From Escherichia coli (GTDB taxonomy: Bacteria > Pseudomonadota > Gammaproteobacteria > Enterobacterales > Enterobacteriaceae): a stretch of 64,000 bases of DNA. Where the stretch lies: the NCBI RefSeq assembly GCF_044324785.1, contig NZ_CP172127.1, one strand, 5' to 3'. Below are positions 2,302 through 63,673 of this stretch, piece after piece. Position 1 is the stretch's first letter. Each line of letters opens with the position of its first letter. Under the pieces are notes generated by a model, which saw nothing but the letters and a program-made list of their open reading frames with translations, was not told the DNA's origin and made no database searches. The translations under genes were made by a program, and so were the position numbers.

Positions 2302-2351
2302 TGGTAGAATTAAATATTGTTGTCTAAATATACATATATGGTTAACTGAAC

Positions 2352-3503: not shown

Positions 3504-3915
3504 AGTTTTTAAGGTTACTATTAGCCTCGGCTTCATCATCTCCAATGTAAAAGCCGAGGTCGTTGGTAATTTCTTCATGGTCTTTTGTAGGAAGTCGTTC
3601 CTCAATAAAGATTCTCTCACGTAAAGACATCGTGGGAACACTAATGTTTTTGACGGTGCCCCAGTCTCCAGAATAAAAGGGCCAAAAATTAATTCGAGAA
3701 TTTTGAAGGAAGCTATCTAATTGCATATCACTGTTTTCGAGAACAATGGCAGTAAAGGTAAGCATTTGCTGACCATCTTTGTAAATAAAATTACATAAAG
3801 GATGGATCATTATATCTGGTCTACCTGTTAATCCAATACTTATGGCACGTTGAGCTGCTTTTATTAAAAGGTGTGGGTACCTTTTAAAAGTGACATCATC
3901 AACAGTTAGATTCAC
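3454..3915 (-). CDS. Hypothetical protein (153 aa), third gene of GHKL-ATPase operon
   Basis: GTG start overlaps the stop of the upstream 177-aa ORF by 4 nt (GTGA). No recognisable motif. 3' end overlaps the MTase 3' end convergently by 50 bp. Confidence 0.55.
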   Translation of the reverse strand: MNLTVDDVTFKRYPHLLIKAAQRAISIGLTGRPDIMIHPLCNFIYKDGQQMLTFTAIVLENSDMQLDSFLQNSRINFWPFYSGDWGTVKNISVPTMSLRERIFIEERLPTKDHEEITNDLGFYIGDDEAEANSNLKNFIEYYKVIPWYSKVLL

Positions 3916-4445
3916 TGGGCAATAATCTTGAGTAAGTAAAGATTGTATTTTTTTAATCGAAAACGCCTAGGGTCTCTTTCTTGAAAATCTCTTCCTAAAG
4001 TTTCAGGAGTTGCATTTAAAGTTATTTTAAATATATCTTTTGGCTTTAACTTACTTACCAATTGAGCAATGTCATTCATTTGCTCATATATTTGGCTTGG
4101 TATGGCATAGTCAAGCCAAATTAGAGAAGGTGCAGCGAAGTCGCTTTGAGTAATAAATTCACTGCTACTTAAAGGTTCTTCTCCTAAATCAATACATGAT
4201 ATAGGTTTGTTAAATTTTTGTCGTTTATGAACGTTAGCATCTACCTCTAGAGAGATCATGTTATTGATTTTTAAAGCATTATGCAGTTGTTTGAAGTCTT
4301 CTAGAAAAGGGCCACCAAACCCGATATAAACATAATCGGATATGTTTACATAGTTGTTGAGTTTTCTGAGCAACTCAATGAATAGATTTCTTTCGACAGC
4401 TTTGTGTTGTCGAAGATGATAAGGAATACTTCCCCCAGTACTCAT
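3912..4445 (-). CDS. Hypothetical protein (177 aa), second gene of GHKL-ATPase operon
   Basis: ATG overlaps the stop of the 488-aa ORF by 4 nt (ATGA). Weak glycine-rich stretch YVYIGFGGPF could be a nucleotide- or SAM-binding loop, but no confident family assignment. Confidence 0.55.
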   Translation of the reverse strand: MSTGGSIPYHLRQHKAVERNLFIELLRKLNNYVNISDYVYIGFGGPFLEDFKQLHNALKINNMISLEVDANVHKRQKFNKPISCIDLGEEPLSSSEFITQSDFAAPSLIWLDYAIPSQIYEQMNDIAQLVSKLKPKDIFKITLNATPETLGRDFQERDPRRFRLKKYNLYLLKIIAQ

Positions 4446-5908
4446 TTTTTTGCCCTCTCTAAAAAATCTTCAAAGCAATAATTACCAATTTCTGTCGGAG
4501 GAACAGAATCATCATCGAAAATGAAAGTGGCAACAGTTTTTATCTCACTCAATCTTCTACTAAATTTTATTTGCTTTAAAGGGTCTGTTTCTTTAGGTAT
4601 TGGCAATGTTGGTTTGAAACTATTCCCACCAATGGATCTATGCACCCGAGACCATTTATCTTCAGGTACTATGCTATCTAGTTTGTCGTTTGTAAGAGGA
4701 ATTGTTTTAGATGTGGAACTAAACATTTGCTGGCGTTCTGGAGAGTTACTTTTCCATCTGTTAGTAAAATCTGTAAATATTTTCAAGCCTTCACGCATGA
4801 AATCTTTAGTAGCCAAATAGATATCAGAATTACCATCAATGCCTCTCTTGGTAGTAGTAATAGGTAATTTTTCAGCTTCATTAGATGTAAAAATAGCTAC
4901 GCCTGCAATTCCAACAAATTGTGTGTGATATTGTGGAACTCCTGCTTCACCCCATCCGGTAAGACGTGTCTTGTCCGCATGAACAACAACACGATCATTG
5001 CAGATAATAGTCCATCCGGCTTTCTCGGAAGTGTTACGTCCAGTAAGGAATGAATTTTCCTCATCTTCTGTCACAAAATCTCTATAGAATCCAACTGCGA
5101 TCTTTATTGAAACTCCATTAGTTTCACCTCTGTAAAAATAAGGCGTGATACCACCTTTTTTCGCTGACACAAGAGCTTCGGTATCGATAATTAATGATGT
5201 CAGATTTGGCTTGACTTCTATATCATTAATATAGACCTTGAAACCTTTATTAAGAATTAGGCTATAATGGTTTGAAACAGAATTGATTAATTTTTGTTGA
5301 AAATCACGATCAACTTTGAAATGGTTTTTTACATCGTCTCTGAGATCGTTAACTATAATTTTTACGCCCGTTGTTTTTAAATCGACATTACCACGTTCGA
5401 GATCTAGTTTCCAGTTTTTATCATTGGATAACCATTCTGGAGAAATTGTAACTTTAAATTCCTCGTCTTTTGTTTTACTTAATACTTGCGATGAAGTGCC
5501 CAACTTAAAAATAGCTCGCTTCATACCTATCCCATAAACACCAATGGTTGGGATATTATCTATGTCTCTTTCATTTGGTCTTCCCATTCGGAAAGCATAG
5601 CTTGTTGCTAAGCTTCCCGAAATTCCGCCACAATTATCTTCAATTGTAAAACCATCTTCATTAAAATTTATTTTTGAGTAAAAACCGTGGTATTTATTTT
5701 CTTCGTTTATTTCTTCATTCGATGATGAAATGGAACGAAGAGCGCCATCAAGACAGTTGTCTAATAAGTCAAGAATAGCATCTTGGAGTTCGATATCCCT
5801 GGTTAACATTTCTACAAAGAAACGTTTTGCAGGAAAAGCTTCGATGATATCGTTTGCCATAGTTATTTTAGTTCCATCTGTGTGATTACTTATAGATATG
5901 TTTACCAT
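4442..5908 (-). CDS. GHKL-superfamily (MutL/GyrB/MORC-like Bergerat fold) ATPase (488 aa)
   Basis: N-box AILDLLDNCLDGA, G1 box IEDNCGGISG and G2 box IGVYGIGMKRA occur in the expected order and spacing in the N-terminal ~130 residues. C-terminal ~350 residues unassigned. First gene of a 3-gene coupled operon. Confidence 0.7.
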   Translation of the reverse strand: MVNISISNHTDGTKITMANDIIEAFPAKRFFVEMLTRDIELQDAILDLLDNCLDGALRSISSSNEEINEENKYHGFYSKINFNEDGFTIEDNCGGISGSLATSYAFRMGRPNERDIDNIPTIGVYGIGMKRAIFKLGTSSQVLSKTKDEEFKVTISPEWLSNDKNWKLDLERGNVDLKTTGVKIIVNDLRDDVKNHFKVDRDFQQKLINSVSNHYSLILNKGFKVYINDIEVKPNLTSLIIDTEALVSAKKGGITPYFYRGETNGVSIKIAVGFYRDFVTEDEENSFLTGRNTSEKAGWTIICNDRVVVHADKTRLTGWGEAGVPQYHTQFVGIAGVAIFTSNEAEKLPITTTKRGIDGNSDIYLATKDFMREGLKIFTDFTNRWKSNSPERQQMFSSTSKTIPLTNDKLDSIVPEDKWSRVHRSIGGNSFKPTLPIPKETDPLKQIKFSRRLSEIKTVATFIFDDDSVPPTEIGNYCFEDFLERAKK

Positions 5909-6136
5909 AAAACAAGGTACAGATCATCGATGTTTAGCACAACATCTTGAGAGTTTCTTGGTAGCATGAGGGGGATTATGCCGCTTATTTTATGATTTTC
6001 AGCTTTGTGCTAATGCATCTAACTGGTGCATGAGTTTGCATTCGCTTTTATTTCAAAGCATGTGGGGGCGTGCTAGTGTTGGTAGAGCTCTGATTTCCTG
6101 ATGCAACTGCATTAAAACCGCCCCATGAAGCGGGCG

Positions 6137-6155
6137 GGCGAGGCGGGGAAAGCAC
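6137..6155. other. cos: P2-type cos site (19-nt cohesive end GGCGAGGCGGGGAAAGCAC)
   Basis: Exact 19-mer present in the GC-rich spacer between the cargo operon and the portal gene Q, where cos lies in P2. The P2 cohesive-end sequence is recalled from memory. Confidence 0.7.
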
Positions 6156-6297
6156 TGCGCGCTGGCGGTGGTGCTGATTTTATTTTTTCAGCGTCTCAGC
6201 GCGTCGTGACGGCGCTTAGTCTGCCCGTTGAGGCGTTGGTGTGTCTGCGGGGTGTTTTGTGCGGTGGTGAGCGTGTGAGGGCGTGATGACGGGGTGT

Positions 6298-6320
6298 AAA
6301 AAAGCCGCCCGCAGGCGGCG
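6298..6320 (-). terminator. Rho-independent terminator downstream of Q
   Basis: Minus-strand hairpin CGCCGCC-TGC-GGGCGGC followed by a T6 run, immediately after the Q stop codon. Confidence 0.65.
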
Positions 6321-6324
6321 ATGT

Positions 6325-7359
6325 TCAGCCGTTGTCAGTGTCCAGTGAGTAGTTTTTAAATCGGATGACCTCCTGACCGAGCCAGCCGTTTATCTCGCGG
6401 ATCCTGTCCTGTAACGGGATAAGCTCATTGCGGACAAAGACCTTTGCCACTTTCTCAATATCACCCAGCGACCCGACGTTCTCCGGCTTGCCGCCCATCA
6501 ACTGAAAGGGGATGCGGTGCGCGTCCAGCAGGTCTGCGGCGCTGGCTTTTTTGATATTAAAAAAATCGTCTTTCGTCGCCACTTCACTGAGCGGGATAAT
6601 TTTAATGCCGTCGGCTTTTCCCTGCGGGGCGTAGAGAAACAGATTTTTAAAGTTGTTGCGGCCTTTCGACTTCACCATGTTTTCGCGGAGCATTTCGATA
6701 TCGTTGCGATCCTGCACGGCGTCGGTGACGTACATGATGTATCCGGCATGTGCGCCGTTTTCGTAATACTTGCGGCGGAACAGCGTGGCCGACTCATTCA
6801 GCCAGGCAGAGTTAAGGGCGCTGAGATATTCCGGCAGGCCGTACAGCTCCTGATTGATATCCGGCTCCAGCAGGTGAAATACGGAGCCGGGCGCGAAGGC
6901 TGTCGGTTCGTTGAAGGACGGCACCCACCAGTAAACATCCTCTTCCACCCCACGGCGGGTATATTTTGCCGGTGAGGTTTCCAGTCTGATGACCTTACCG
7001 GTGGTGCTGTAACGCTTTTCCAGAAACGCATTGCCGAACACCAGAAAATCCAGCACAAAGCGGCTGAAATCCTGCTGGGAAAGCCACGGATGCGGGATAA
7101 ATGTCGAGGCCAGAATATTGCGTTTGACGTAAATCGGTGAGCTGTGATGCACGGCAGCACGCAGACTTTTTGCCAGCCCGGTAAAGCTGACCGGCGGCTC
7201 ATACCATCTGCCGTTACTGATGCATTCGACGTAATCCAGAATGTCACGGCGGTCGAGTACCGGCACCGGCTCGCCAAAGGTGAATGCCTCCATTTTCGGG
7301 GCGCTGGCAGTCATTTTTTTTGCCGCAGGTTGCGGTGTTTTCCCTTTTTTCTTGCTCAT
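6325..7359 (-). CDS. Q: Portal protein gpQ (344 aa)
   Basis: Size, position next to cos and terminase, and sequence are typical of the P2 portal protein. Confidence 0.9.
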   Translation of the reverse strand: MSKKKGKTPQPAAKKMTASAPKMEAFTFGEPVPVLDRRDILDYVECISNGRWYEPPVSFTGLAKSLRAAVHHSSPIYVKRNILASTFIPHPWLSQQDFSRFVLDFLVFGNAFLEKRYSTTGKVIRLETSPAKYTRRGVEEDVYWWVPSFNEPTAFAPGSVFHLLEPDINQELYGLPEYLSALNSAWLNESATLFRRKYYENGAHAGYIMYVTDAVQDRNDIEMLRENMVKSKGRNNFKNLFLYAPQGKADGIKIIPLSEVATKDDFFNIKKASAADLLDAHRIPFQLMGGKPENVGSLGDIEKVAKVFVRNELIPLQDRIREINGWLGQEVIRFKNYSLDTDNG

Positions 7360-9131
7360 CAGTAAAACTCCAGAATGGTGGATGTCAGCGGGGTGCTGAT
7401 ACCGGCGGTGAGTGGCTCATTTAACAGGGCGTGCATGGTCGCCCAGGCGAGGTCGGCGTGGCTGGCTTCCTCGCTGCGGCTGGCTTCATAGGTGGCGCTG
7501 CGTCCGCTGCTGGTCATGGTCTTGCGGATAGCCATAAACGAGCTGGTGATGTCGGTGGCGCTGACGTCATATTCCAGACAGCCACGGCGGATAACGTCTT
7601 TTGCCTTGAGCACCATTGCGGTTTTCATTTCCGGCGTGTAGCGGATATCACGCGCGGCGGGATAGAACGAGCGCACGAGCTGGAACACGCCGACACCGAG
7701 GCCGGTGGCATCAATACCGATGTATTCGACGTTGTATTTTTCGGTGAGTTTGCGGATGGATTCAGCTTGGGTGGCAAAGTCCATGCCTTTCCACTGGTGA
7801 CGCTCAAGTATTCTGAATTTGCCACCGGCCACCACCGGCGGTGCCAGTACCACGCATCCGGCGCTGTCGCCACGGTGTGACGGGTCGTAACCAATCCATA
7901 CCGGGCGGGAGCCGAACGGATTGGCGGCAAACGGCGCATAGTCTTCCCATTCTTCCAGCGTGTCGACCATGCAGCGTTGCAGCTCCTCGAACGGGAACAC
8001 CGATGCCTTGTCGTCAACAAATTCACACATGAACAGGTTTTTAAAATCGTCGGCGCTGTTTTCGCGTTTGAGCTGCTCAATGTCGAACAGCGTGCAGCCG
8101 CCTTTCAGGGCATCCTCAATGGTGACAATCTGCCGCCACTGGCCGTCCGCACAGAGAAGCCCACCGGCAAGGGCGTTATGACTGACGTCGATTTCCACAC
8201 GTTCGGCGGCGCTGGCGCGTCCCCGGTTGAACAGTTCACCTGACCAGAACGGGTAGGCGTCGTGCGCCAGCGTGGACGGGGTGGAGAAATAGGTCGAGCG
8301 CAGGTGACTCTGTGAGGCCATACCTGATGCCACCTTACGCAGTACCTGAAAATTCGGGATCCAGAAAATCTCATCGACGTACAGGTCGCCGTTATGGCTC
8401 TGCGCGGTGTTGGAGTTTGTGCCGAGAAAAATCAGTTTTGCGCCGTTATTGCCCAGGACAATCGGGTCACCGGTCAGGTCAACGTCAACCAGACGGGCAA
8501 AGGCGATGATGTATTCACGGAATACATACGCCTGCGTTTTACTGGCCGACAGAAAAATCTGGTTATGGCCGGTTTTCAGGGCGCGCAGCAGCGCCTCGCG
8601 GGAAAAATAAAACGTTGCGCCAATCTGGCGGGATTTCAGGATATCGCGGATGCGGTGCTCAAGCCCGGCGCGATACCAGTGCAACTGATAGTCGAAAGAC
8701 TGCTCAAAGAAAATCTGCTCCAGCTTTTCGATGGCCTCGTCACTGAAAAAATTCTTTTTCGGTTTGCGACGCCCGCCTTTGTTGCGGTTAGCGACGTTCG
8801 GATTAAGGTCTGCCTCGTTGCCGGTCTGACTGTAGCGGTTTATCCGTGCCAGTCGTTCAATCTGGCGTCCGAGCAGGTCAATTTCCTTGAAGTCACCACC
8901 GGTTTTCTGCGGTTTGATGATGAGCTGGGTCAGTCGCGCTTCCAGACTCATTTCGACACGGCTGATGGGGGCAACGCTGTCCCAGCCGTCGCGCTGTTTC
9001 CAGCTCTGCACCGTCGGGCGTTTCATCTGCAACATGGCGGCAATCTGCGGCACGGAAAACCCCTGCCAGTACAGCAGCGCCGCCTGACGACGCGGGTCGT
9101 GTAAAAGAGTGGTGTCTGTGGTGATGGTCAT
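7359..9131 (-). CDS. P: Terminase large (ATPase) subunit gpP (590 aa)
   Basis: ORF track gives 7359..9161. Start trimmed to the internal Met (MTITTDTTLL) that matches the P2 gpP N-terminus and length. Confidence 0.9.
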   Translation of the reverse strand: MTITTDTTLLHDPRRQAALLYWQGFSVPQIAAMLQMKRPTVQSWKQRDGWDSVAPISRVEMSLEARLTQLIIKPQKTGGDFKEIDLLGRQIERLARINRYSQTGNEADLNPNVANRNKGGRRKPKKNFFSDEAIEKLEQIFFEQSFDYQLHWYRAGLEHRIRDILKSRQIGATFYFSREALLRALKTGHNQIFLSASKTQAYVFREYIIAFARLVDVDLTGDPIVLGNNGAKLIFLGTNSNTAQSHNGDLYVDEIFWIPNFQVLRKVASGMASQSHLRSTYFSTPSTLAHDAYPFWSGELFNRGRASAAERVEIDVSHNALAGGLLCADGQWRQIVTIEDALKGGCTLFDIEQLKRENSADDFKNLFMCEFVDDKASVFPFEELQRCMVDTLEEWEDYAPFAANPFGSRPVWIGYDPSHRGDSAGCVVLAPPVVAGGKFRILERHQWKGMDFATQAESIRKLTEKYNVEYIGIDATGLGVGVFQLVRSFYPAARDIRYTPEMKTAMVLKAKDVIRRGCLEYDVSATDITSSFMAIRKTMTSSGRSATYEASRSEEASHADLAWATMHALLNEPLTAGISTPLTSTILEFY

Positions 9132-20206: not shown

Positions 20207-22525
20207 ATGAGCACAAAATTCAGAACCGTTATCACCACTGCCGGTGCAGCAAAGCTGGCAGCGGCAACCGCACCGGGAGGGCGGAAGGTCAACATTACCA
20301 CGATGGCCGTCGGGGATGGCGGTGGTAAATTGCCTGTCCCGGATGCCGGACAGACCGGGCTTATCCACGAAGTCTGGCGACATGCGCTGAACAAAATCAG
20401 CCAGGACAAACGAAACAGTAATTATATTATCGCAGAGCTGGTTATTCCGCCGGAGGTGGGCGGTTTCTGGATGCGTGAGCTTGGCCTGTACGATGATGCG
20501 GGAACGTTAATTGCTGTGGCGAACATGGCCGAAAGTTATAAGCCAGCTCTCGCCGAAGGCTCAGGGCGTTCGCAGACCTGTCGCATGGTCATCATCGTCA
20601 GCAGTGTGGCCTCAGTGGAGCTGACCATTGACACCACAACAGTGATGGCGACGCAGGATTACGTTGATGACAAAATTGCAGAGCACGAACAGTCACGACG
20701 TCACCCGGACGCCTCGCTGACCGCCAAAGGTTTTACTCAGTTAAGCAGTGCGACCAACAGCACGTCTGAAACACTGGCCGCAACGCCGAAAGCGGTAAAG
20801 GCCGCGTATGACCTTGCTAACGGGAAATATACTGCGCAGGATGCCACCACAGCGCGAAAAGGTCTTGTCCAGCTCAGTAGTGCCACCAACAGCACGTCTG
20901 AAACGCTCGCTGCAACACCAAAAGCGGTAAAAGCAGCATATGACCTGGCTAACGGGAAATATACCGCACAGGACGCCACCACCGCGCGAAAAGGCCTTGT
21001 CCAGCTAAGTAGCGTCACCAACAGCGATTCTGAAACGCTTGCGGCAACGCCAAAGGCGGTTAAGACAGCGTATGACCTTGCTAACGGGAAATACACTGCA
21101 CAGGATGCCACCACAGCGCGAAAAGGGCTTGTCCAGCTCAGTAGCGCCACCAACAGTGATTCTGAAACCCTCGCGGCAACGCCAAAAGCAGTGAAGTCTG
21201 CCTATGACAATGCTGAAAAACGTCTTCAGAAAGATCAGAACGGTGCGGATATTCCGGGAAAGGATACCTTCACGAAAAATATCGGTGCCTGTCGTGCTTA
21301 TAGCGGCGCTTTGAGCACTGAAGCCGGAAACTGGACAACCGCTCAGTTTATTGAATGGCTGGATTCCCGTGGTGCATTTAATCATCCGTACTGGATGTGC
21401 AAAGGCTCCTGGTCATATGCAAATAACAAAATCATTACGGATACCGGATGTGGTGATATCCACCTGGCTGGTTGTGTCGTCGAGGTCATGGGAACTAAAT
21501 CTGCAATCACTATCCGAGTGACCACGCCGACAACATCAAGCGGTGGCGGTACAACCAGCGCGCAATTCACTTACATTAATCATGGGGACGGCTACTCCCC
21601 CGGCTGGCGTCGTGACTGGAATCGTCAGGGCGACGCAATGACCGGAACGATTAATCAGGATGGCGGAAGCCAGAATGCCTATATGTCTACGGCCTTATGT
21701 TCAGGCACCAGAGGCGGCAAAAAATATCTCAGAAAGTTTCGTGGTGGAGAAGGAGACACTATCTGGCATGAAACAGTACAGGGCGGGGTAGTTCGCTGGG
21801 CGACTGGTAATACTGATGCTCAGGAAGAATTATCACTCAGCTCCGCTTATGGTCTCCGTTCAAGAGGTGAGATTACATCAAGCAGTGCTAATGGTCTGCG
21901 CATTGCTTATGGCAATTATGGATTCTTTATCAGGAATGATGGCAGCAGCACTTATTTTATGTTGACTAAATCAGGTGACAGATTAGGCACTTATAATAAT
22001 TTAAGACCACTGATTATAAATGATGCCACGGGTGCTGTATCAATGGGGCATGGCCTGAGTGTTACTGGTGATATTGCCTCAAGTACCAAAGTACGTGCCG
22101 GTAGCGGGAAAAAATTCACGGTCAGCAGCAGTAATACATCCACGAAGGAAGCCGCATTCAATTTGTGGGGAAACTCAAGTCGTCCGGTGGTGGCTGAATT
22201 AGGTGATGATGCAGGCTGGCATTTTTACAGTCAGAGAAATACAGATAACAGCATCACTTTTGCTGTTAACGGGCAGGTATCACCATCTAACTATAGTAAT
22301 TTTGATTCACGCTATGTCCGGGATATCCGGCTTGGTGGTGCTGCCACATACAAACCTGCGAACAATGGCATGACATGGACACATCAGGCACCGTCCGGGT
22401 GTGTATATTCCGGCATTATTGTTCAGGATACCGGCTCAAACTCTGCCGATAACATTGGTGGCGTATATTACAGACCGGTGCAGAAATACATTAACGGGAC
22501 ATGGTATAACGTGGCACAGGTATAA
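20207..22525 (+). CDS. H: Tail fibre protein gpH (772 aa) with internal tandem repeats and divergent distal half
   Basis: Conserved N-terminus MSTKFRTVITTAGAAKLAAA, then a repeat block, then an AT-richer C-terminal half. Confidence 0.85.
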   Translation: MSTKFRTVITTAGAAKLAAATAPGGRKVNITTMAVGDGGGKLPVPDAGQTGLIHEVWRHALNKISQDKRNSNYIIAELVIPPEVGGFWMRELGLYDDAGTLIAVANMAESYKPALAEGSGRSQTCRMVIIVSSVASVELTIDTTTVMATQDYVDDKIAEHEQSRRHPDASLTAKGFTQLSSATNSTSETLAATPKAVKAAYDLANGKYTAQDATTARKGLVQLSSATNSTSETLAATPKAVKAAYDLANGKYTAQDATTARKGLVQLSSVTNSDSETLAATPKAVKTAYDLANGKYTAQDATTARKGLVQLSSATNSDSETLAATPKAVKSAYDNAEKRLQKDQNGADIPGKDTFTKNIGACRAYSGALSTEAGNWTTAQFIEWLDSRGAFNHPYWMCKGSWSYANNKIITDTGCGDIHLAGCVVEVMGTKSAITIRVTTPTTSSGGGTTSAQFTYINHGDGYSPGWRRDWNRQGDAMTGTINQDGGSQNAYMSTALCSGTRGGKKYLRKFRGGEGDTIWHETVQGGVVRWATGNTDAQEELSLSSAYGLRSRGEITSSSANGLRIAYGNYGFFIRNDGSSTYFMLTKSGDRLGTYNNLRPLIINDATGAVSMGHGLSVTGDIASSTKVRAGSGKKFTVSSSNTSTKEAAFNLWGNSSRPVVAELGDDAGWHFYSQRNTDNSITFAVNGQVSPSNYSNFDSRYVRDIRLGGAATYKPANNGMTWTHQAPSGCVYSGIIVQDTGSNSADNIGGVYYRPVQKYINGTWYNVAQV
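20726..21225 (+). repeat. About 3.8 tandem copies of a 132-bp (44-aa) unit inside H
   Basis: Peptide unit QLSSATNS(T/D)SETLAATPKAVKAAYDLANGKYTAQDATTARKGLV recurs with Q codons at 20738, 20870, 21002 and 21134. Confidence 0.9.
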
Positions 22526-22528
22526 TTT

Positions 22529-23056
22529 ATGCAGCATTTGATAAATATAACCGCGGGTAATCCAAAAACGGTTGAACAATATCAATTGACAAAGGACTTT
22601 GATGTTGTCTGGTTTTTTACAGAAGATGGTAAGAACTGGTACGAAGAACAAAAGTATTTTGCTGATGACACGATAAAAATAGCGTACGACAAGGATAATA
22701 TTATCCGCTATGTGGAAAAAGATGTGACAGCTATCAGACCAGATGGATTAAGTGTGGTTGAAGTGGCGGATATTACTGCTAACCGACGGGCGGACATTTC
22801 AGGGAACTGGATGTTTAAGGACGGCAAAGTGATTAAACGCATTTATACGGCAGAGGAATTGCAGCAGCAGGCAGAAAACCGGAAAGCCAGACTTCTTGCA
22901 GATGCTGAATCCGTGATTTTGCCACTGGAGCGCGCTGTCAGGCTGAACATGGCAACAGATGAGGAGCGTAGCCGACTGGAAGCATGGGAACGCTACAGTG
23001 TTCTGGTCAGCCGTGTGGATCCTGCAAATCCTGAATGGCCGGAAATGCCGCAATAA
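22529..23056 (+). CDS. G: Tail fibre assembly chaperone gpG (175 aa)
   Basis: Immediately downstream of H. AT-rich like the distal part of H. Confidence 0.8.
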
Positions 23057-23381
23057 GTGATATGATCTCTTGTGTTAGTTAACATAGCTATAGTACAGAG
23101 TAAGGCCTAATCTGACAGTCCGCTCTGTGCTAGGAGCGGACATTATCAACATCATGCTATGTTAATGTATAAAGTGAAGATAAATTGATATAATAAGGCC
23201 ACCATGAATATTTCAGAACCTTGTCAAAAGGTTTGCACATACTCTAGTCTTGCAATGTGTAGTTGATAGTTCCACTGAGGAGGTTCTTCGACATTCTTTA
23301 TAAAAATGTACATTTTCATCAATAATAAGAGGTAAAAGGGCTTTAATGGTTTTTTGTGGATGTTATTTCTACTCATAAATT

Positions 23382-23410
23382 TTGAGATAAGTATTGAGTT
23401 GAGATAAAAT
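23382..23410 (+). promoter_or_regulatory. Putative sigma70 promoter for the 175-aa cargo gene
   Basis: -35 TTGAGA at 23382..23387, 17-bp spacer, -10 TAAAAT at 23405..23410. AAGGA Shine-Dalgarno about 8 nt before the ATG at 23446. Confidence 0.4.
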
Positions 23411-23445
23411 TAAACTCGTTAAATTCACCTTTAAAAGGATAAAGC

Positions 23446-23973
23446 ATGGACTGGAAAGATCTTGCATCAACCGCTGTGTATACAGGTATGACTGATGAAA
23501 ATGAAAGCATATGGGAACGTGTTGATGGGGTTGACGTTGCCTTCATAGGTGCCTTTCTTACTGCGCACTTGAGCCTTGAAAAGTATATTACTGATTATCT
23601 TGGATTAAGATATCCTTCGTTAGCTTGGGGTGATGCAAAACTCACATTTTCACAAAAAATAGCTTTAATACAACATGAGCCTGCAACCCCCCCTTATGAT
23701 GAAATATATTTAAGAATAAAAGACTTTAACAGCATAAGAAATAAAATCAGTCATCAATTGAATTATCAGATTACGGATAAAGAAAAAAGTAAGTTTGTGG
23801 ACTTCTACATGAAGATTACTAAAGCCAGTAAAACTAAACCAAATATTGATATTGATAACATGGCAGATTTGTTGGATTTTTTCGTATCGATGACAAAATC
23901 CTATTTTGCTAGTGCTATTTCTTGTTATCACTATAATAAAAAGGTTGCAGGTAAAAGTAATAAAATTGATTAA
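23446..23973 (+). CDS. Hypothetical cargo protein (175 aa) with Rx4H HEPN-like motif
   Basis: Very AT-rich gene in the G-to-FI gap, where P2 carries Z/fun. Motif IRNKISH (R-x4-H) in the middle of the protein. Good Shine-Dalgarno. Confidence 0.55.
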   Translation: MDWKDLASTAVYTGMTDENESIWERVDGVDVAFIGAFLTAHLSLEKYITDYLGLRYPSLAWGDAKLTFSQKIALIQHEPATPPYDEIYLRIKDFNSIRNKISHQLNYQITDKEKSKFVDFYMKITKASKTKPNIDIDNMADLLDFFVSMTKSYFASAISCYHYNKKVAGKSNKID

Positions 23974-24271
23974 TAAAACTGGACTTAGGGATAATTAATA
24001 TATAGACGTTCTATCATTTTTAGAGTGTGCGGCAGCTCCATACATTCATGCGGATGTCAGCACCTCGCTCAAAGCAGACAGTCAGATTTGATAGCGTTTG
24101 GACTATGTAAATAGTCAGTTGGAAAATGAGTGAGTACAAATCAGGACAGGCGGGCGAATTGCCCGCCTTTTCTTTATCTGTTGTTTCATCCACTGACCAG
24201 CCAGGTCAAATAGCGTCTCATGCTCTGCCCAACAGAAAATAGTTGCACCCATTAACCACGGAGTTAAACGG

Positions 24272-28931: not shown

Positions 28932-29411
28932 ATGATGCTCGCGTTAGGTATGTTTGTTTTTATGCGCCAGACGCTGCCACACCAGACCATGCAGCGTGAA
29001 TCAGATTATCGCTGGCCGTCAAATTCCCGTATCGGTAAACGGGACGCCTACCAGTTTCTCGGTGTGGGTGAGGAAAACATCACGCTTGCCGGTGTGCTTT
29101 ATCCAGAACTGACCGGCGGCAAGCTGACGATGACCACGCTCAGGCTGATGGCAGAGGAAGGCCGGGCGTGGCCGTTGCTGGATGGCACCGGCATGATTTA
29201 CGGCATGTATGTCATCAGCAGGGTGAGTGAAACAGGGAGTATTTTCTTTGCAGACGGCACACCCCGGAAAATTGATTTTACGTTGTCGCTCACCCGCGTT
29301 GATGAATCACTGGCCGCGCTTTATGGCGATATCGGTAAACAGGCGGAATCGCTCATCGGTAAGGCTGGCAGTATGGCGACTAAATTCACGGGTATGACGG
29401 GGGCGGGATAA
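28932..29411 (+). CDS. U: Tail protein gpU (159 aa)
   Basis: Position and size. Confidence 0.9.
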   Translation: MMLALGMFVFMRQTLPHQTMQRESDYRWPSNSRIGKRDAYQFLGVGEENITLAGVLYPELTGGKLTMTTLRLMAEEGRAWPLLDGTGMIYGMYVISRVSETGSIFFADGTPRKIDFTLSLTRVDESLAALYGDIGKQAESLIGKAGSMATKFTGMTGAG

Positions 29412-30574
29412 TGCTGGACGCGCTGACATTTGATGCAGGCAGTACGCTGACGCCGGATTACATGCTGATGCTCGACAGCAGGGATATTACCGGCAATATC
29501 AGCGACCGTCTGATGAGCATGACCCTGACGGATAACCGGGGCTTTGAGGCTGACCAGCTTGATATTGAACTGAACGATGCCGACGGGCAGGTCGGGCTGC
29601 CGGTTCGTGGCGCTGTCCTGACGGTGTATATCGGCTGGAAAGGTTTTGCCCTGGTATGCAAAGGGAAATTTACCGTTGATGAGGTTGAACACCGGGGCGC
29701 ACCGGATGTGGTCACCATCCGCGCCCGGAGTGCAGATTTCCGCGGGACGCTCAATTCCCGCCGTGAAGGCTCCTGGCATGACACCACGCTCGGTGCGATT
29801 GTTGAGGCGATAGCCTCCCGTAACAGACTGGAAGCCAGTGTCGCTCCGTCACTGGCCGGAATTAAAATCCCGCACATCGACCAGTCGCAGGAGTCTGATG
29901 CGAAATTCCTGACCCGTCTTGCAGAACGCAACGGCGGTGAGGTGTCGGTAAAAATGGGAAAACTGCTGTTTCTCAAAGCGGGGCAGGGGGTGACTGCCAG
30001 CGGTAAAAAAATCCCGCAGATTACCATCACCCGCAGCGACGGTGACCGTCATCATTTTGCGATTGCTGACCGTGGCGCCTATACCGGCGTAACGGCAAAG
30101 TGGTTACACACCAAAGACCCGAAGCCACAAAAGCAGAAGGTAAAACTGAAACGCAAAAAGAAAGAGAAACACCTGCGCGCACTGGAGCACCCGAAAGCGA
30201 AACCAGTCACGCAGAAGAAAGCGCCAAAAGTACCGGAAGCACGCGAAGGTGAATACATGGCTGGTGAGGCTGACAACGTTTTTGCCCTGACCACGGTATA
30301 TGCCACGAAAGCGCAGGCCATGCGCGCCGCTCAGGCGAAGTGGGATAAGCTGCAACGGGGCGTTGCGGAGTTCTCCATCAGTCTGGCTACTGGTCGGGCA
30401 GATATTTACACGGAAACGCCGGTCAAAGTGTCAGGCTTTAAGCGCGTCATAGACGAGCAGGACTGGACAATCACTAAGGTGACACATTTTCTGAATAATA
30501 GCGGCTTCACGACGTCCTTAGAGCTTGAGGTCAGGCTTTCTGATGTGGAGTACGAAACAGAAGATGATGAGTGA
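29411..30574 (+). CDS. D: Tail protein gpD (387 aa)
   Basis: Position and size. Start overlaps the U stop. Confidence 0.9.
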   Translation: MLDALTFDAGSTLTPDYMLMLDSRDITGNISDRLMSMTLTDNRGFEADQLDIELNDADGQVGLPVRGAVLTVYIGWKGFALVCKGKFTVDEVEHRGAPDVVTIRARSADFRGTLNSRREGSWHDTTLGAIVEAIASRNRLEASVAPSLAGIKIPHIDQSQESDAKFLTRLAERNGGEVSVKMGKLLFLKAGQGVTASGKKIPQITITRSDGDRHHFAIADRGAYTGVTAKWLHTKDPKPQKQKVKLKRKKKEKHLRALEHPKAKPVTQKKAPKVPEAREGEYMAGEADNVFALTTVYATKAQAMRAAQAKWDKLQRGVAEFSISLATGRADIYTETPVKVSGFKRVIDEQDWTITKVTHFLNNSGFTTSLELEVRLSDVEYETEDDE

Positions 30575-30655: not shown

Positions 30656-30874
30656 ATGTTTCATTGTCCTTTATGCCAGCATGCCGCACATGCGCGTACA
30701 AGCCGCTATATCACTGACACGACAAAAGAGCGTTATCACCAGTGTCAGAACGTGAATTGCAGCGCCACGTTCATCACTTATGAGTCGTTACAGCGATACA
30801 TCGTGAAGCCGGGAGAAGTCCACGCCGTAAGACCGCACCCGTTGCCGTCAGGGCAGCAAATTATGTGGATGTAA
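30656..30874 (+). CDS. ogr: Late gene transcriptional activator Ogr, zinc finger (72 aa)
   Basis: MFHCPLCQHAAHARTSRY...CQNVNCSATF with a four-Cys zinc motif. ORF track start at 30593 trimmed to the internal Met. Confidence 0.9.
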   Translation: MFHCPLCQHAAHARTSRYITDTTKERYHQCQNVNCSATFITYESLQRYIVKPGEVHAVRPHPLPSGQQIMWM

Positions 30875-30885
30875 TTACAAACAGG

Positions 30886-30911
30886 AAGCCCCTCAGTCGA
30901 GGGGCTTTTTT
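30886..30911 (+). terminator. Rho-independent terminator after ogr
   Basis: Hairpin AGCCCCTC-AGTC-GAGGGGCT followed by a T6 run. Confidence 0.7.
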
Positions 30912-30975
30912 GTCGATGTGGTCAATGTGTGGACGTGACCAGAAATAAATCCTTTTATTTCATTGTATTACGCGT

Positions 30976-31002
30976 AAAAAATAAGCCCGTGTAAGGGAGA
31001 TT
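30976..31002. other. attR: Prophage attR core (P2 27-bp att core AAAAAATAAGCCCGTGTAAGGGAGATT)
   Basis: Exact 27-mer at the junction between ogr and the host gene yegQ. Coincides with the 3' end of cyaR. The P2 core sequence is recalled from memory. Confidence 0.7.
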
Positions 31003-31062
31003 ACACAGGCTAAGGAGGTGGTTCCTGGTACAGCTAGCATTTTATGGGTTATGTTTTTCAGC
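30976..31062 (-). ncRNA. cyaR: CyaR (RyeE) Hfq-dependent small RNA, 87 nt
   Basis: Minus strand reads GCTGAAAAACATAACCCATAAAATGCTAGCTGTACCAGGAACCACCTCCTTAGCCTGTGTAATCTCCCTTACACGGGCTTATTTTTT: a CCUCCUU seed loop and a terminal hairpin with U-run. Lies between yegQ and the prophage end, as in K-12. Confidence 0.85.
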
Positions 31063-31146
31063 GAAACGGATGATAACCTTAATAAATGCAGCTGTATGTG
31101 ATCGGTTTCTAAGAATTTTCCATCCGGGAAAAATAATCGAAATTAA

Positions 31147-32508
31147 TCACTTACCGTGGGGGTTACGCGTGGTTTCCCCGGAGAAATTACGCATCAGCAG
31201 CGCGTAATTTAGCTCAAGATCCTGCGGCACCGGGATCCACACAGTATAACCATCGCCCGGTGCGACCGGCATTGCTTCGCCTTTGGCGTTTTCCATGTGC
31301 TCAAGGGTAAAGTTAATGTTCCCTTGCGGCGTCATCAGCTCAAGGCTGTCGCCAACGGAGAATTTATTTTTCACCGCTACCGCCGCGAGGTCGCCCTTGC
31401 GCTCACCGGTAAACTCACCAACAAACTGCTGGCGGTCAGAAACTGAATAACCGTATTCGTAGTTCTGATAATCGTCGTGAGTATGACGACGCAGGAAACC
31501 TTCGGTATAGCCACGATGCGCCAGACCTTCCAGAGTTTCCAGCAGGCTGGTATCGAACGGTTTGCCCGCAGCGGCGTCATCGATAGCTTTACGGTAAACC
31601 TGTGCGGTGCGTGCGCAATAGTAGAAAGATTTAGTACGGCCTTCGATTTTCAGCGAATGCACGCCCATTTTGGTCAGGCGTTCAACGTGGGCGATAGCGC
31701 GCAGATCTTTCGAGTTCATGATGTAAGTGCCGTGCTCATCTTCAAACGCGGTCATATACTCGCCCGGACGCTGGGCTTCTTCGATCATAAACACTTTGTC
31801 GGTTGGCGCGCCGATACCCAGCGTCGGCTCAACATTTTGCACCGGAATCGGCTCGTACTTGTGCACGATGTTGCCAACGTCATCTTCTTTCCCTTCCTGG
31901 ACGTTGTACTCCCAGCGGCAGGCGTTGGTGCAGGTGCCCTGGTTCGGGTCGCGCTTGTTGATATAGCCAGAGAGCAGGCAGCGACCGGAGTAGGCCATGC
32001 ACAGCGCGCCGTGAACGAAGATTTCGATCTCCATATCTGGCACCTGATTGCGGATCTCTTCAATCTCTTCCAGCGACAGCTCGCGAGAGAGGATCACGCG
32101 GGTCAGGCCCATTTGCTGCCAGAATTTCACCGTCGCCCAGTTCACGGCGTTAGCCTGTACCGAGAGATGGATCGGCATTTCAGGGAAGTGCTCACGCACC
32201 AGCATAATCAGCCCAGGATCGGACATTATCAGCGCATCCGGCCCCATTTCCACCACCGGTTTCAGGTCACGGATAAAGGTTTTCAGCTTGGCGTTGTGCG
32301 GTGCAATGTTGACCACGACATAAAACTTTTTCCCCAGCGCATGGGCTTCATTAATGCCGAGCTGAAGATTTTCGTGGTTGAATTCGTTGTTGCGCACACG
32401 CAGGGAGTAACGCGGCTGGCCCGCATAAACAGCATCTGCGCCATAAGCGAAAGCGTAACGCATATTTTTCAGCGTTCCCGCCGGGGAAAGGAGTTCCGGT
32501 TTAAACAT
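31147..32508 (-). CDS. yegQ: Peptidase U32-family protein YegQ (RlhA, 23S rRNA hydroxycytidine synthase), 453 aa
   Basis: Full-length translation is recognisable as E. coli YegQ. Confidence 0.9.
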   Translation of the reverse strand: MFKPELLSPAGTLKNMRYAFAYGADAVYAGQPRYSLRVRNNEFNHENLQLGINEAHALGKKFYVVVNIAPHNAKLKTFIRDLKPVVEMGPDALIMSDPGLIMLVREHFPEMPIHLSVQANAVNWATVKFWQQMGLTRVILSRELSLEEIEEIRNQVPDMEIEIFVHGALCMAYSGRCLLSGYINKRDPNQGTCTNACRWEYNVQEGKEDDVGNIVHKYEPIPVQNVEPTLGIGAPTDKVFMIEEAQRPGEYMTAFEDEHGTYIMNSKDLRAIAHVERLTKMGVHSLKIEGRTKSFYYCARTAQVYRKAIDDAAAGKPFDTSLLETLEGLAHRGYTEGFLRRHTHDDYQNYEYGYSVSDRQQFVGEFTGERKGDLAAVAVKNKFSVGDSLELMTPQGNINFTLEHMENAKGEAMPVAPGDGYTVWIPVPQDLELNYALLMRNFSGETTRNPHGK

Positions 32509-32709: not shown

Positions 32710-33315
32710 ATGTGGATGTTAAAGAAGGGAATCACGCTGGCTCTGTTGGTTCTGTTTTCTCTGCCCGCTACTGCCGGTCTTTCGCTGGAGGAGACTGCTC
32801 GTAAGGTGATTATCGGCTTTCAGCAAAAAGATGCTCAATTAATCAACTCGTTAATTGATAAAAAAACGGGGTTGTATGTTCTCTTCCAGCGTGGCGCTTC
32901 GATGGATGTCGAAAATTTTAAGTCAATTGATTTTAAAACGCCTGTTCCCGAGTATTTGCTGTGGCCTTCGGCAGGGGAACATATTCCGCGAGATGAAGAG
33001 TTTGATAAGAAAACTATCCCGGAATTTGACTGTGAACGTGGTTGGAATAAGCACGGATATTTTATTAGCAGCAGCGATACACACCATAAAGTCAGCCGTA
33101 ATTTGGTCTTCACGCAGATGTTTGGTTCACCGCGAAACACTATTTCTGATGCGCAGATTGCCGCAGCGCGTCGAATGGAGTACGGGGCCGTGCGTGTGGT
33201 CGCTGCGCCAGAAGGGGGTAGCGATGGACTGGTATTTTATTTAAGTCAACTTTACGGTTATGACCGTGACTGGTATCTGACGGTGGTGGATCAGATTGGT
33301 GATTGTGGGGCGTGA
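32710..33315 (+). CDS. Hypothetical secreted protein (201 aa)
   Basis: N-terminal signal peptide MLKKGITLALLVLFSLPATA. No recognisable family. In an islet that, as far as I recall, is absent from the K-12 yegP-yegQ interval. Confidence 0.6.
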   Translation: MWMLKKGITLALLVLFSLPATAGLSLEETARKVIIGFQQKDAQLINSLIDKKTGLYVLFQRGASMDVENFKSIDFKTPVPEYLLWPSAGEHIPRDEEFDKKTIPEFDCERGWNKHGYFISSSDTHHKVSRNLVFTQMFGSPRNTISDAQIAAARRMEYGAVRVVAAPEGGSDGLVFYLSQLYGYDRDWYLTVVDQIGDCGA

Positions 33316-33345
33316 TAAAGATTTATTCGCCCGCAAGCAGTGATG

Positions 33346-34746
33346 CTATTTAAAAGGTATGTAACCCCTTAATCTGTTGTGAAGTTCCGGATTGCGGGTA
33401 AAAAGCGCCTGAAGTTGCTGACGCTGGGGAGCATTCGGTTGAATGCCCGAAAGATTGAAATTGCGTTGCCATATTGCGAGCTGTTTATCTGCAAATTCTT
33501 CAGTTAGTTTGTGTTGCGATTGCAGAAGAAGAATTAAACCGTCCCATTTGTTCAAGTTATGATACAACCGACAATATGCGCAAGCATGTTTAACTGACGG
33601 TGCGTTTTCCAGCAACTGACGTATTTCCTCGAACGTGAGCGGAACGCGACACCATACACAGATGTTAACCATAAATCGAAGCCCGGAGGCGTCCGGGTTA
33701 GCCAGTGTGGTCAGAATAATCCCTTTGGCACCACCATCAGGATTGGCTTTCGCAAGAATATACATAGCGGCTAATCGCAGTGGGAATACATCCTGTGATA
33801 ATCCCCATTCAGCCAGTTTTAAAATATTGGCATCATGAATGGAGTCCAGCCCGTATAAAGCTGCCCGGCGCTGTGAGGGAGTATATTCAGTCGAGGTGAC
33901 AACATGACGCCAGAATTGCGCAACATCCATGACGTCATTAAGCATGTTTTTAGCGCGTAGACGGATCAACATATTGTTATCCAGCAGTAATGCGCTGTAC
34001 AACGCCGGAGGAATTTCTATAGCTCGGTCAGTAAGGCTAAACAACGTTGCTTGTCGAATACGCGGCCAGCGGTCTTTTAACAGACGAGTTAATACCGCTT
34101 CGCTTAACGGTAATTGTTGACGCAGCCAGTGGGTGACCGCCAGCATTCGTAAACCTTCGTCGGGCTGCTTGAGTATTAAAAGCAGCGAAGATTCATCATT
34201 AAAGTAGCCATATTCAATCAGCGTTTGTAATACTGCGCGGGAGAGTTTTTTATCAGGGCAAGTAAGCCAACACGTTAATTGTGGACGGCTATTTTCTGTC
34301 AATAAAAATCTAAGTATCTCGTCTACAAATGCACGGTGATCGTAACGCTGGCATTGGAGAAGGTTACGTATCATGGGAAGATTAACGGCAAATGCCGCTG
34401 CATTCTTATCCTTCTTTAAATGACGTAACGCTATGGTTGCAGCAAGGCGAACCTCTTTTACCCAGTCATTAGCTGCAAGTAATAATTCTTCTATAGCTGC
34501 AACATCCTCTTTTTGTCCCAGACATTGCACGGCCTTTTCTCGTATATATCCATTGTGGTGATGGGTAAGCTGGCAAAGAACCAGAGTATCGTTGAGATCA
34601 CAATCATGCGCTATATAATTGCCTGGATCGGCTATCATCGCCTGGAGTTGTTGCTGGATAAGAAATAATTCACAGTCAACAGAATTATTCATTTCGACAT
34701 TAAACAAAACCCTGCGTGTAAATAATGTACGCAATCCTTTGAGCAT
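33346..34746 (-). CDS. Hypothetical HEAT/ARM-like repeat protein (466 aa)
   Basis: Recurrent approximately VRxxAxxAL helical-repeat signatures (KEVRLAATIALRHL, WPRIRQATLFSL, FPLRLAAMYILAK). Lower GC than flanking core genes. Confidence 0.6.
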   Translation of the reverse strand: MLKGLRTLFTRRVLFNVEMNNSVDCELFLIQQQLQAMIADPGNYIAHDCDLNDTLVLCQLTHHHNGYIREKAVQCLGQKEDVAAIEELLLAANDWVKEVRLAATIALRHLKKDKNAAAFAVNLPMIRNLLQCQRYDHRAFVDEILRFLLTENSRPQLTCWLTCPDKKLSRAVLQTLIEYGYFNDESSLLLILKQPDEGLRMLAVTHWLRQQLPLSEAVLTRLLKDRWPRIRQATLFSLTDRAIEIPPALYSALLLDNNMLIRLRAKNMLNDVMDVAQFWRHVVTSTEYTPSQRRAALYGLDSIHDANILKLAEWGLSQDVFPLRLAAMYILAKANPDGGAKGIILTTLANPDASGLRFMVNICVWCRVPLTFEEIRQLLENAPSVKHACAYCRLYHNLNKWDGLILLLQSQHKLTEEFADKQLAIWQRNFNLSGIQPNAPQRQQLQALFTRNPELHNRLRGYIPFK

Positions 34747-34868
34747 AATTTTCCTTATCAGTTATGAGGAGAAAACTCATTTCATGATTAATAATTTCTT
34801 GAGGGATAGTAACTCTGTGGTGAGAGAAAATAAAGCCGGACGCCAACAACCCACGCCCGGCATCGTAA

Positions 34869-46587: not shown

Positions 46588-46735
46588 CGCTGAAACGGGA
46601 AAGCCCCTCCCGAGGAAGGGGCCATAAATAAGGAAAGGGTCATGATGAAGCTACTCATCATCGTGGTGCTCTTAGTGATTAGCTACCCAGCATACTAAGA
46701 CTACCAGGGCGGGGGAAACCCCGCTCTACCCTCAC
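46588..46735 (-). ncRNA. sibB: Sib antisense sRNA, antitoxin to the first ibs (boundaries approximate)
   Basis: In the Ibs/Sib family the antitoxin RNA is encoded antisense and spans the whole toxin ORF. Minus-strand hairpin GGCCCCTTCC-TCG-GGAGGGGC at about 46596..46619 is a plausible 3' terminator. Ends not determined. Confidence 0.4.
46642..46698 (+). CDS. ibsB: Ibs-family type I toxin peptide (18 aa, MMKLLIIVVLLVISYPAY)
   Basis: Short hydrophobic ORF with AAGGAAAGGG Shine-Dalgarno. Copy adjacent to mdtA. Symbol assigned by synteny and similarity to K-12 IbsB as recalled. Confidence 0.7.
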   Translation: MMKLLIIVVLLVISYPAY

Positions 46736-46914
46736 TCCTGAAAGTATGCCTTCACGATAAGATTGTCAATCTGCAGGCTTTGCAGTCTGCGATCCTGCCA
46801 GCAAATATTCTTTGCGAGACGTTACGCAATAATCACATGTGAAACTATTTTATCCGCAAGTCAGCGATAGACTGCATTCAGGGCGAAAGGAGGTAAGCCG
46901 ATGATTTCAGCGGG

Positions 46915-47062
46915 ACGCTGAAACGGGAAAGCCCCTCCCGAGGAAGGGGCCTTAAATAAGGAAAGGGTCATGATGAAGTGGATCATCATCGTGGTGCTCT
47001 TAGTCATAAGCTTCCCGGCTTACTAAGACTACCAGGGCGGGGGAACCCCCGCTCTACCCTCA
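46915..47062 (-). ncRNA. Sib antisense sRNA for the middle ibs copy (boundaries approximate)
   Basis: Same architecture as the first unit, shifted by one repeat period. Confidence 0.4.
46969..47025 (+). CDS. Ibs-family type I toxin peptide (18 aa, MMKWIIIVVLLVISFPAY), middle copy
   Basis: Second repeat unit. Same architecture as the other two copies. Confidence 0.7.
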
Positions 47063-47244
47063 CTCCTGAAAGTATGCCTTCACGATAAGATTGTCAATCT
47101 GCAGGCTTTGCAGTCTGCGATCCTGCCAGCAAATATTCTTTGCGAGTCGTTACGCAATAATCACAGAGGAAACTATTTTGTTCACGCGTTAGCGATAGAC
47201 TGCATTCAGGGCGAAAGGAGGTAAGCCGACGATTTCAGCGGGAC

Positions 47245-47392
47245 GCTGAAACGGGAAACCCTCTCCCGGAGAAGAGGGCTTTTAATAAGGAAAGGGTTAT
47301 GATGAAGCACGTCATCATACTGGTGATACTCTTAGTGATTAGCTTCCAGGCTTACTAAGAACACCAGGGGGAGGGGGAAACCTCTCCCTAAC
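47245..47392 (-). ncRNA. sibA: Sib antisense sRNA for the third ibs copy (boundaries approximate)
   Basis: Same architecture as the first unit, shifted by two repeat periods. Confidence 0.4.
47299..47358 (+). CDS. ibsA: Ibs-family type I toxin peptide (19 aa, MMKHVIILVILLVISFQAY)
   Basis: Third repeat unit adjacent to yegL. IbsA-like. Confidence 0.7.
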   Translation: MMKHVIILVILLVISFQAY

Positions 47393-47578
47393 CCTCACTC
47401 CTGAAATTATGTCACTCCGCCCTTAGTGTCAATCGACGGCTCTCCGTTCTTGCGAGGCGAATAGCAAAATTTTCTGCGCCGCCGGGCCTAATTCTGAAAG
47501 TTTCTTCGTTTGCTCTTATTTCATTGTTGCGGTCGGTATGATACCGGGCCTCAATAATTCTCTAAGAAAGGATTTCTT

Positions 47579-63193: not shown

Positions 63194-63661
63194 AGTAAGT
63201 ACAAAACCTATTCGTTGTATGACAAATGTCACAATTCGATCATGGATAAATCGGGGCAAAAATGCAATGTTGCAGCACTATTTATCTCATATTATTTGAG
63301 GGTAATAACCTCACATTATCCCTGAATTAAAAGTGGTAATAATAAAACATTATTTAAGAAATATCGCATGTGGAGACACAGTATTAAATATTGTCAACCT
63401 AAAGAAACTCCTAAAAAACATATTGAATGACACTTAATATAATTCTTAAAAATAGCCAATTGCCGAATTGTTACCTTGCCTGCTATTCCGTTAGCTGTAA
63501 CACTTCCTCCTGCATTATTGGAGAGCCAATATTCAATTACCATAATGTCACCTTATATTCGGAAGTTAATTTCCGCAATAACCCTTTCTCATCAACGATT
63601 GTATGCAGAGAGGGTTTGAAAAATTGAGCTAAATCAGTGTATTGGTAGCTAAAAAGCCAGG

Positions 63662-63673
63662 GGCGGTAGCGTG
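63662..63673 (+). promoter_or_regulatory. ops element (GGCGGTAGCGTG) within a JUMPstart sequence upstream of wza
   Basis: Exact ops 12-mer inside CAGTGTATTGGTAGCTAAAAAGCCAGGGGCGGTAGCGTG (63635..63673). Expected RfaH-dependent antitermination site of the colanic acid operon leader. Confidence 0.7.

Follow-up and report, generated by a model that had tools for sequence, protein, structure and literature searches.

The attR core of a P2-type prophage at the 3' end of the small RNA gene cyaR in Escherichia coli

Several temperate phages are described that use the 3' end of a small RNA gene as their attachment site. Targets comparable to the one considered here are tRNA-Ile for phage 186, ssrA for Fels-2 and SopE-phi, and sdsR/ryeB in Salmonella (PMC3448106, PMC3333887, PMC3603311). 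For the P2-like integrases, attP and attB share an identical core, and the arm sites follow the consensus tgTGGaCa (review, PMC3448106). The gene ryeE (cyaR) of E. coli was itself "previously known to be targeted by phages" according to Bobay, Rocha & Touchon, who cite Wassarman et al. 2001 (PMC3603311); this was the only explicit statement of phage targeting of ryeE found in the literature. In the MG1655 annotation, the "cryptic prophage PR-X" (2167183-2167811) overlaps the last 18 nt of cyaR (2167114-2167200). The arrangement described below is already known from the literature and from this annotation. The 27-nt core and the preferred site of E. coli C, "locI", were reportedly sequenced by Yu, Bertani and Haggard-Ljungquist in 1989, and the remnant at the equivalent site of K-12 is said to have been described by Barreiro and Haggard-Ljungquist in 1992. 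We take the site between yegR and yegQ to be this preferred attB, "locI", of P2.

How does the present locus compare with these systems? The analysis concerned a 64-kb stretch of an E. coli chromosome (contig NZ_CP172127.1), hereafter the window. The 27-bp P2 core, AAAAAATAAGCCCGTGTAAGGGAGATT, occurs in it as a single exact copy at 30976-31002 on the plus strand, and it is the same as the annotated attP core of P2 (AF063097). A search of the whole 64-kb window with up to three mismatches permitted gave no second core, because the window opens at the start codon of gpA and attL lies outside it. Chance coincidence was rejected as an origin of the match, since none of 100 dinucleotide-preserving shuffles contained the core even with up to three mismatches. 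On the minus strand, the core is the last 27 nt of cyaR (ryeE), an intact sRNA gene of 87 nt at 30976-31062 which is identical at 87/87 positions to cyaR of MG1655 (b4438). The initial annotation had claimed that an attR core coincides with the 3' end of cyaR, and the exact, unique core and the identity of the gene bear this out. It had further claimed that the core is identical to the terminal hairpin and U-run of the sRNA. Here the U-tail, the loop and the 3' arm stand, and the 5' arm does not. Of the 5' stem arm, the core takes in just the final 2 nt, together with the loop, all of the 3' arm and the U-tail; the other 9 nt of this arm (31003-31011) belong to the bacterial flank. The equation of core and terminal hairpin thus goes slightly too far, as the core holds about two thirds of the hairpin. 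Since it has only one arm of the RNA stem, the dyad of this stem cannot be the dyad to which Int binds in the core.

The identity of the sRNA gene is supported in several ways. The Rfam family CyaR_RyeE (RF00112) matches the minus strand from 31064 to 30979 with 100.7 bits (gathering threshold 47, E = 6e-19), and the match spans the full covariance model, positions 1-85 of 85. The gene adjoins yegQ/trhP, which is the synteny by which CyaR is recognised, in addition to its identity to the K-12 gene. A terminator scan found its intrinsic terminator hairpin at 30984-31011 (minus strand; 11 pairs, 6-nt loop), directly followed by the U-tail TATTTTTT at 30983 to 30976, and in the fold of the RNA the terminal hairpin has z = -4.1. 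Upstream of the gene, a putative CRP-like site, TTAGA-N6-TCACA (31097-31112, minus strand), is centred about 42 bp upstream of the +1 of cyaR, and a -10 hexamer, TATCAT, lies at 31070-31075 on the same strand; both were read from the sequence. The promoter scan gave no sigma-70 consensus for cyaR, as is expected for an activator-dependent promoter, and CyaR is CRP-dependent (PMC3333887). In another strain, CDE2901-yvys, an ISVsa5 element (IS10-like; stretch L005, 1479-2988) has inserted between trhP and cyaR, about 150 bp upstream of the latter, with an RNA-OUT match inside it at 1718-1787; cyaR is intact there.

To the left of the core, the window is phage DNA. The leftmost prophage gene is gpA, encoding the replication endonuclease (1-2301, plus strand; an open reading frame, named after the annotation of the related strain EC77), and int, C, cox and B lie off the window, left of gpA. 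From gpA to ogr runs a series of genes including those for portal, terminase, capsid, lysis and tail, which makes about 31 kb of contiguous P2 genes. At its right end is the open reading frame of the tail/late control protein gpD (29411-30574, plus strand), which corresponds in length and position to P2 D (AF063097) and is annotated in siblings as "phage late control D family". The late-gene activator ogr (30656-30874, plus strand), 71/72 identical to P2 Ogr, is the last phage gene before attR. The rho-independent terminator of the ogr/F operon follows at 30885-30908 on the plus strand, transferred from the P2 annotation with an offset of 28599 and also detected as a hairpin. Then come, both on the plus strand, the arm-type Int site of the P arm (30913-30940; P2 feature "Int, P arm"), whose sequence is identical to that of P2, and the IHF site of the P arm (30944-30977; P2 feature "IHF"), in which several bases near the core have diverged, the window having cattgtattacgcgt and P2 caatttattgtacgt. 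The same variant of the IHF site is found in the K-12 remnant and in other phage records that match the stretch from ogr to the core at up to 99.2% identity. The window aligns without gaps to the ogr side of the P2 att map, in which the order is terminator of the ogr/F operon, Int P arm, IHF, 27-nt attP core, Cox, Int P' arm and int (AF063097). On the other side of the core lies the flanking bacterial gene yegQ/trhP (31147-32508, minus strand; an open reading frame named from the annotation under the matches). With the P arm on the left, the core in the middle and bacterial DNA on the right, the junction is attR. The claim that the element occupies the classical P2 site next to yegQ likewise agrees with yegQ/trhP on the right of the core and the P2-annotated arm on its left. 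The terminators of cyaR and of the ogr/F operon face each other about 75 bp apart and should insulate the convergent transcripts. As for the left end of the window, its base 1 is the A of the gpA start codon, and the chromosome records of EC05, W13-16, PM7 and CP164635.1 begin at the same base; this looks like the work of an assembly-rotation tool that mistook the phage replication gene for the start gene.

The closest described system is phage P2 itself. The 27-bp core is identical, the order of ogr terminator, Int P arm, IHF and core is the same, the Int of the sibling prophage in EC77 is identical to P2 Int at 336/337 positions, and the host flanks are yegR and yegQ. Yet the phage in the window is a relative of P2 rather than P2: over the first 25 kb, it is collinear with P2 at 96.5% identity over 70% of the length. 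It also differs in several bases of the IHF site and carries other cargo at the tin/old and Z/fun positions. With PR-X of K-12 (yegZ-ogrK), the window shares the attR junction, where cyaR is identical at 87/87 positions and the 30 nt downstream of it are also identical. PR-X, however, keeps only about 0.63 kb (a D' fragment, ogrK and attR), in contrast to the full-length prophage of the window, and its left junction cuts inside the attL core. In the K-12 derivative RR1 (L007, 1940-1975), this left junction keeps about 18 nt of the core, AAAAAAATAAGCCCGTGTA, and then passes into the D' fragment, which indicates that a deletion reaching from within the attL core to gene D produced the remnant. 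The tRNA, tmRNA and sdsR/ryeB targets resemble the present one in that a small structured RNA gene has its 3' end repeated in the core and so survives insertion intact. Unlike the tRNA and tmRNA targets, the target here is the terminator of an Hfq-dependent sRNA and not a tRNA-like fold.

Is the junction the product of site-specific recombination at this core? To this end, four sequences were aligned: the junction of the window, P2 attP, the int-side junction of EC77 and the empty site of strain ANT. The left side of attR is that of attP and its right side that of attB; the left side of attL is that of attB and its right side that of attP; and the 27-nt core is common to all four. This is the textbook pattern of attP x attB giving attL and attR, and it marks a conservative site-specific recombination inside the core. 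The second core was sought in six sibling lysogens that have this phage, or one almost identical to it, at the site: EC77, EC05 and four contigs that encode exactly the gpA protein of the window. An exact copy in direct orientation, between yegR and int, was found in 6/6 of them. EC77 has a complete genome, and its prophage at this site is 99.4% identical to 1-6200 of the window; its attL core (L001, 5323-5349) and attR core (L008, 3223-3249) have the same orientation and are 33,318 bp apart. In the five of the six lysogens with core and gpA on one stretch, the core lies about 3.68 kb upstream of gpA, and in the four contigs with identical gpA it starts 3,682-3,683 bp upstream of the gpA ATG. 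These four contigs diverge from the window over 1-8301, beginning at homopolymer indels. If the genome of the window resembles them, its prophage would measure about 34.66 kb from core to core. Its completeness and its competence for excision are likewise predictions from the sibling genomes. Overall, we are highly confident that 30976-31002 is the attR core of a full-length P2-type (Peduovirus) prophage, inserted in the 3' end of cyaR between yegR and yegQ.

What does the insertion change at the sRNA gene? The initial annotation had suggested PCR across an empty site in related strains, and this can be done in silico: in ANT and N3, the order is yegR, one core with cyaR, and yegQ, and the flanks match the left side of attL and the right side of attR. 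The CyaR score is 100.7 bits alike in the empty site, in the attR of EC77 and in the window, and empty and occupied sites do not differ in the 73 nt right of the core. An Rfam scan of attL, attR and the empty site gave no CyaR match at attL. The transcribed sequence is thus unaltered, and attL gains nothing more than an orphan 27-bp copy. The equal score before and after insertion also upholds the earlier claim that the phage integrates into an sRNA gene and regenerates its terminator. The difference lies beyond the U-run, where the empty site continues with TATGCAT... (a run of 7 T) and the lysogen with ACGCGT... (6 T, then A). The form with 6 T and then A is seen in the attR of the window (30976-30983), in the attL flank of EC77 (L001) and in the cyaR of K-12 itself; the form with 7 T is seen in the empty site of ANT (L003), in the attL flank of EC05 (L006) and in the left flank of the K-12 remnant (L007). 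Since K-12, in which the function of CyaR was worked out, has the 6-T context of the attR type, this context is functional.

The integration may be pictured as follows, with the recombination steps and protein requirements inferred from the biochemistry of P2. Together with host IHF, P2 Int, a tyrosine recombinase, would assemble an intasome on attP, comprising the Int site of the P arm, the IHF site, the core and the Int site of the P' arm. The attB is the last 27 nt of cyaR, and Int would exchange strands inside the 27-bp identity with this 3' end. In the outcome attR keeps the full cyaR, and only the DNA past the U-run turns into the phage P arm, with attL, beside int, keeping an orphan 27-bp core without promoter and without the 5' stem arm. 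Because both products retain a complete core, cyaR keeps its terminator. Excision would need Cox on the P' arm at attL.

How common is the occupied site? The yegQ side of a 1.2-kb junction probe has matches in 5,423 of 5,426 complete E. coli genomes, and the whole junction of ogr, core, cyaR and yegQ is found in 1,124 of the 5,426, either as a prophage or as a remnant of the K-12 type. Of the other genomes, a sample was taken down the ranking, and in most of it the match starts at probe positions 569-577, that is, at 30968-30976 of the window, the left edge of the core. The prophage boundary had been called exact, and it is so to within the core, as homology elsewhere begins at these positions. 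With an empty-site probe, the two flanks are found together in 4,566 genomes, either contiguous or split only by the remnant of about 0.6 kb; as a count of empty sites by BLAST, this gives bounds only, since the flanks are joined across K-12-type remnants.

The left flank of the empty site holds a trace of its own. In every strain examined, the first 15 nt of the P2 Int arm site, TCGATGTGGTCAATG, recur without a mismatch immediately left of the core, and the resemblance then continues as GT.ACCAGA.ATA, so that the flank appears to contain a fossil arm-type Int site, TGTGGTCA. The local alignment of ANT to the P2 P arm scores 38, compared with a highest score of 27 among 2,000 shuffles and of 24 among 656 chunks of genome; in a set of 5,000 shuffles, ANT scores 38 against a maximum of 25 and N3 scores 33 against a maximum of 28. 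In the N3 lineage, the similarity reaches as far as ...AATCC, with ...GGGATCAATCC compared to GAAATAAATCC in P2, and the spacing from arm to core is only 4 nt shorter than in P2. The decayed arm is located at 2901-3000 of L003 (ANT), at 5276-5322 of L001, at 1900-1948 of L007, and also in L005, L006, L009 and L010-L013. Its deletions differ by lineage, the N3-type flank being 12 nt longer. A hairpin in the empty-site flank occupies the position of the ogr terminator. The neighbouring gene yegR (ANT, L003, 2524-2841) has 36% GC, compared with 50-54% for yegS and trhP beside it. In the P2-type prophage of NDM5, a cargo gene for a trypsin-like peptidase lies between ogr and the P arm (L004, 1511-2362), a position that corresponds to the one of yegR beside the decayed arm. 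It is quite possible, though we stop short of favouring it, that the "empty" attB at cyaR is the fossil right end of an older P2-type prophage and that yegR is a domesticated phage moron. DNA and protein searches for a free phage with yegR gave none; the only matches, in PHROG and the phage database, were two records that both include host flank and lend yegR no independent support as phage cargo, and for this reason the older scar is put forward as a hypothesis. If it is true, present-day P2 phages would integrate into the attR scar of a predecessor.

Could the junction in the window be explained otherwise? One explanation is a cryptic remnant of the K-12 type (D'-ogrK-attR, "PR-X"), a dead scar that kept attR by chance. 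In its favour, the remnant is all that many genomes have, and the window agrees with K-12 in the 30 nt downstream of cyaR. However, P2 genes run through the window without a break for about 31 kb, from gpA to ogr, and the K-12 remnant passes from only about 18 nt of core at its left junction straight into D'. A remnant of the PR-X type was rejected on the gene content of 1-30874, which goes far beyond D' and ogrK, and the chance left to it is negligible. A further explanation accepts a full-length prophage, but with attL and int deleted or rearranged in this genome, so that the second core is missing and the element is locked in. The left end of the prophage does lie off the window, one sibling (L012) has a split int gene, and a cargo gene of the window carries a frameshift. 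Against these stands the exact attL core in all six sibling lysogens examined, which leaves such a loss highly improbable.

The fossil arm raises a question of descent rather than of structure: was the 3' end of cyaR in E. coli itself derived from a phage, its terminator rebuilt from an ancient P2-type att scar? The P-arm-like stretch left of the empty site, with scores of 38 and 33 that exceed the shuffle maxima of 25-28, would fit such a history, as would its position next to the low-GC gene yegR. But in the Rfam consensus, the loop AAUCUCCCUU and a terminator stem with covariation are common to the whole CyaR family, which argues that the hairpin is an old feature of the host, and a fossil arm indicates an earlier occupancy of the site and not the origin of the terminator. 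We consider this reverse descent, as opposed to a phage that evolved to target a terminator already present in the host, very unlikely.

Some other features of the window should be noticed. At the tin/old position of P2, the prophage carries a low-GC cargo (35-39% GC) at 2352-5908, which only 2 of the 5,426 complete E. coli genomes share. It consists of an m5C DNA methyltransferase (2352-3503, plus strand; PF00145), the sole cargo gene recognised by PADLOC; a Methyltransf_35 "putative O-methyltransferase" (3454-4445, minus strand) and a GHKL-type ATPase (4442-5860, minus strand; HATPase_c_3) had no PADLOC match, and the cargo may thus be a restriction or defence module not yet catalogued. A run of 7 T at 3948-3954, in place of 8 T in EC77 and other siblings, splits the Methyltransf_35 gene into open reading frames at 3454-3915 and 3912-4445. 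The split could stem from a sequencing error in the homopolymer, or the gene could be a pseudogene or subject to a phase switch. In the first 6.2 kb, the window and EC77 differ by 38 substitutions, all of them inside gpA (48-1819), and the cargo is otherwise identical. Such a confinement to gpA points to a mosaic history with recombination within this gene. In another low-GC stretch (22000-24000), between the tail-fibre assembly gene and FI, which is the Z/fun hotspot of P2, lies an open reading frame of 175 aa (23446-23973, plus strand) that matches phrog_5483, a family of unknown function, and has no Pfam or PADLOC match.

On the chromosomal side, an islet of two genes in a lower-GC stretch lies between yegQ and yegP, at about 32710-34750. 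Its first gene encodes a hypothetical protein of 201 aa (32710-33315, plus strand) with no PHROG match, and the second encodes a HEAT-repeat protein by homology to N3. The same spot holds a ParDE toxin-antitoxin pair in L005 and nothing in ANT and K-12, which makes this a second hotspot of variation beside the att site. Further to the right, three tandem Sib antitoxin RNAs lie at 46627-47432 on the minus strand (Rfam SIB_RNA, 138-150 bits), with Ibs toxin open reading frames opposite by homology to N3, and a JUMPstart element lies at 63635-63673 on the plus strand (57 bits), upstream of the colanic-acid wza operon by homology to N3. For the chromosomal part 31003-56000, the best match among complete genomes is N3 with 98.3%, and the next-ranked of the eight best listed have about 95%. 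This points to a divergent lineage or to frequent recombination in this region, close to the colanic-acid and O-antigen loci.

What does the junction mean for the phage and its host? It places the right end of the prophage with a precision of 27 bp, and it predicts attL about 3.68 kb upstream of gpA. Lysogeny leaves cyaR undisrupted. What is more, as K-12 shares the 3' context of the attR type, the CyaR studied in K-12 is expressed from a lysogen-type 3' flank. The locus thus provides a clean documented case of a temperate phage that uses the 3' end of a regulatory sRNA gene as its attB, in the same manner as the tRNA and tmRNA targets.
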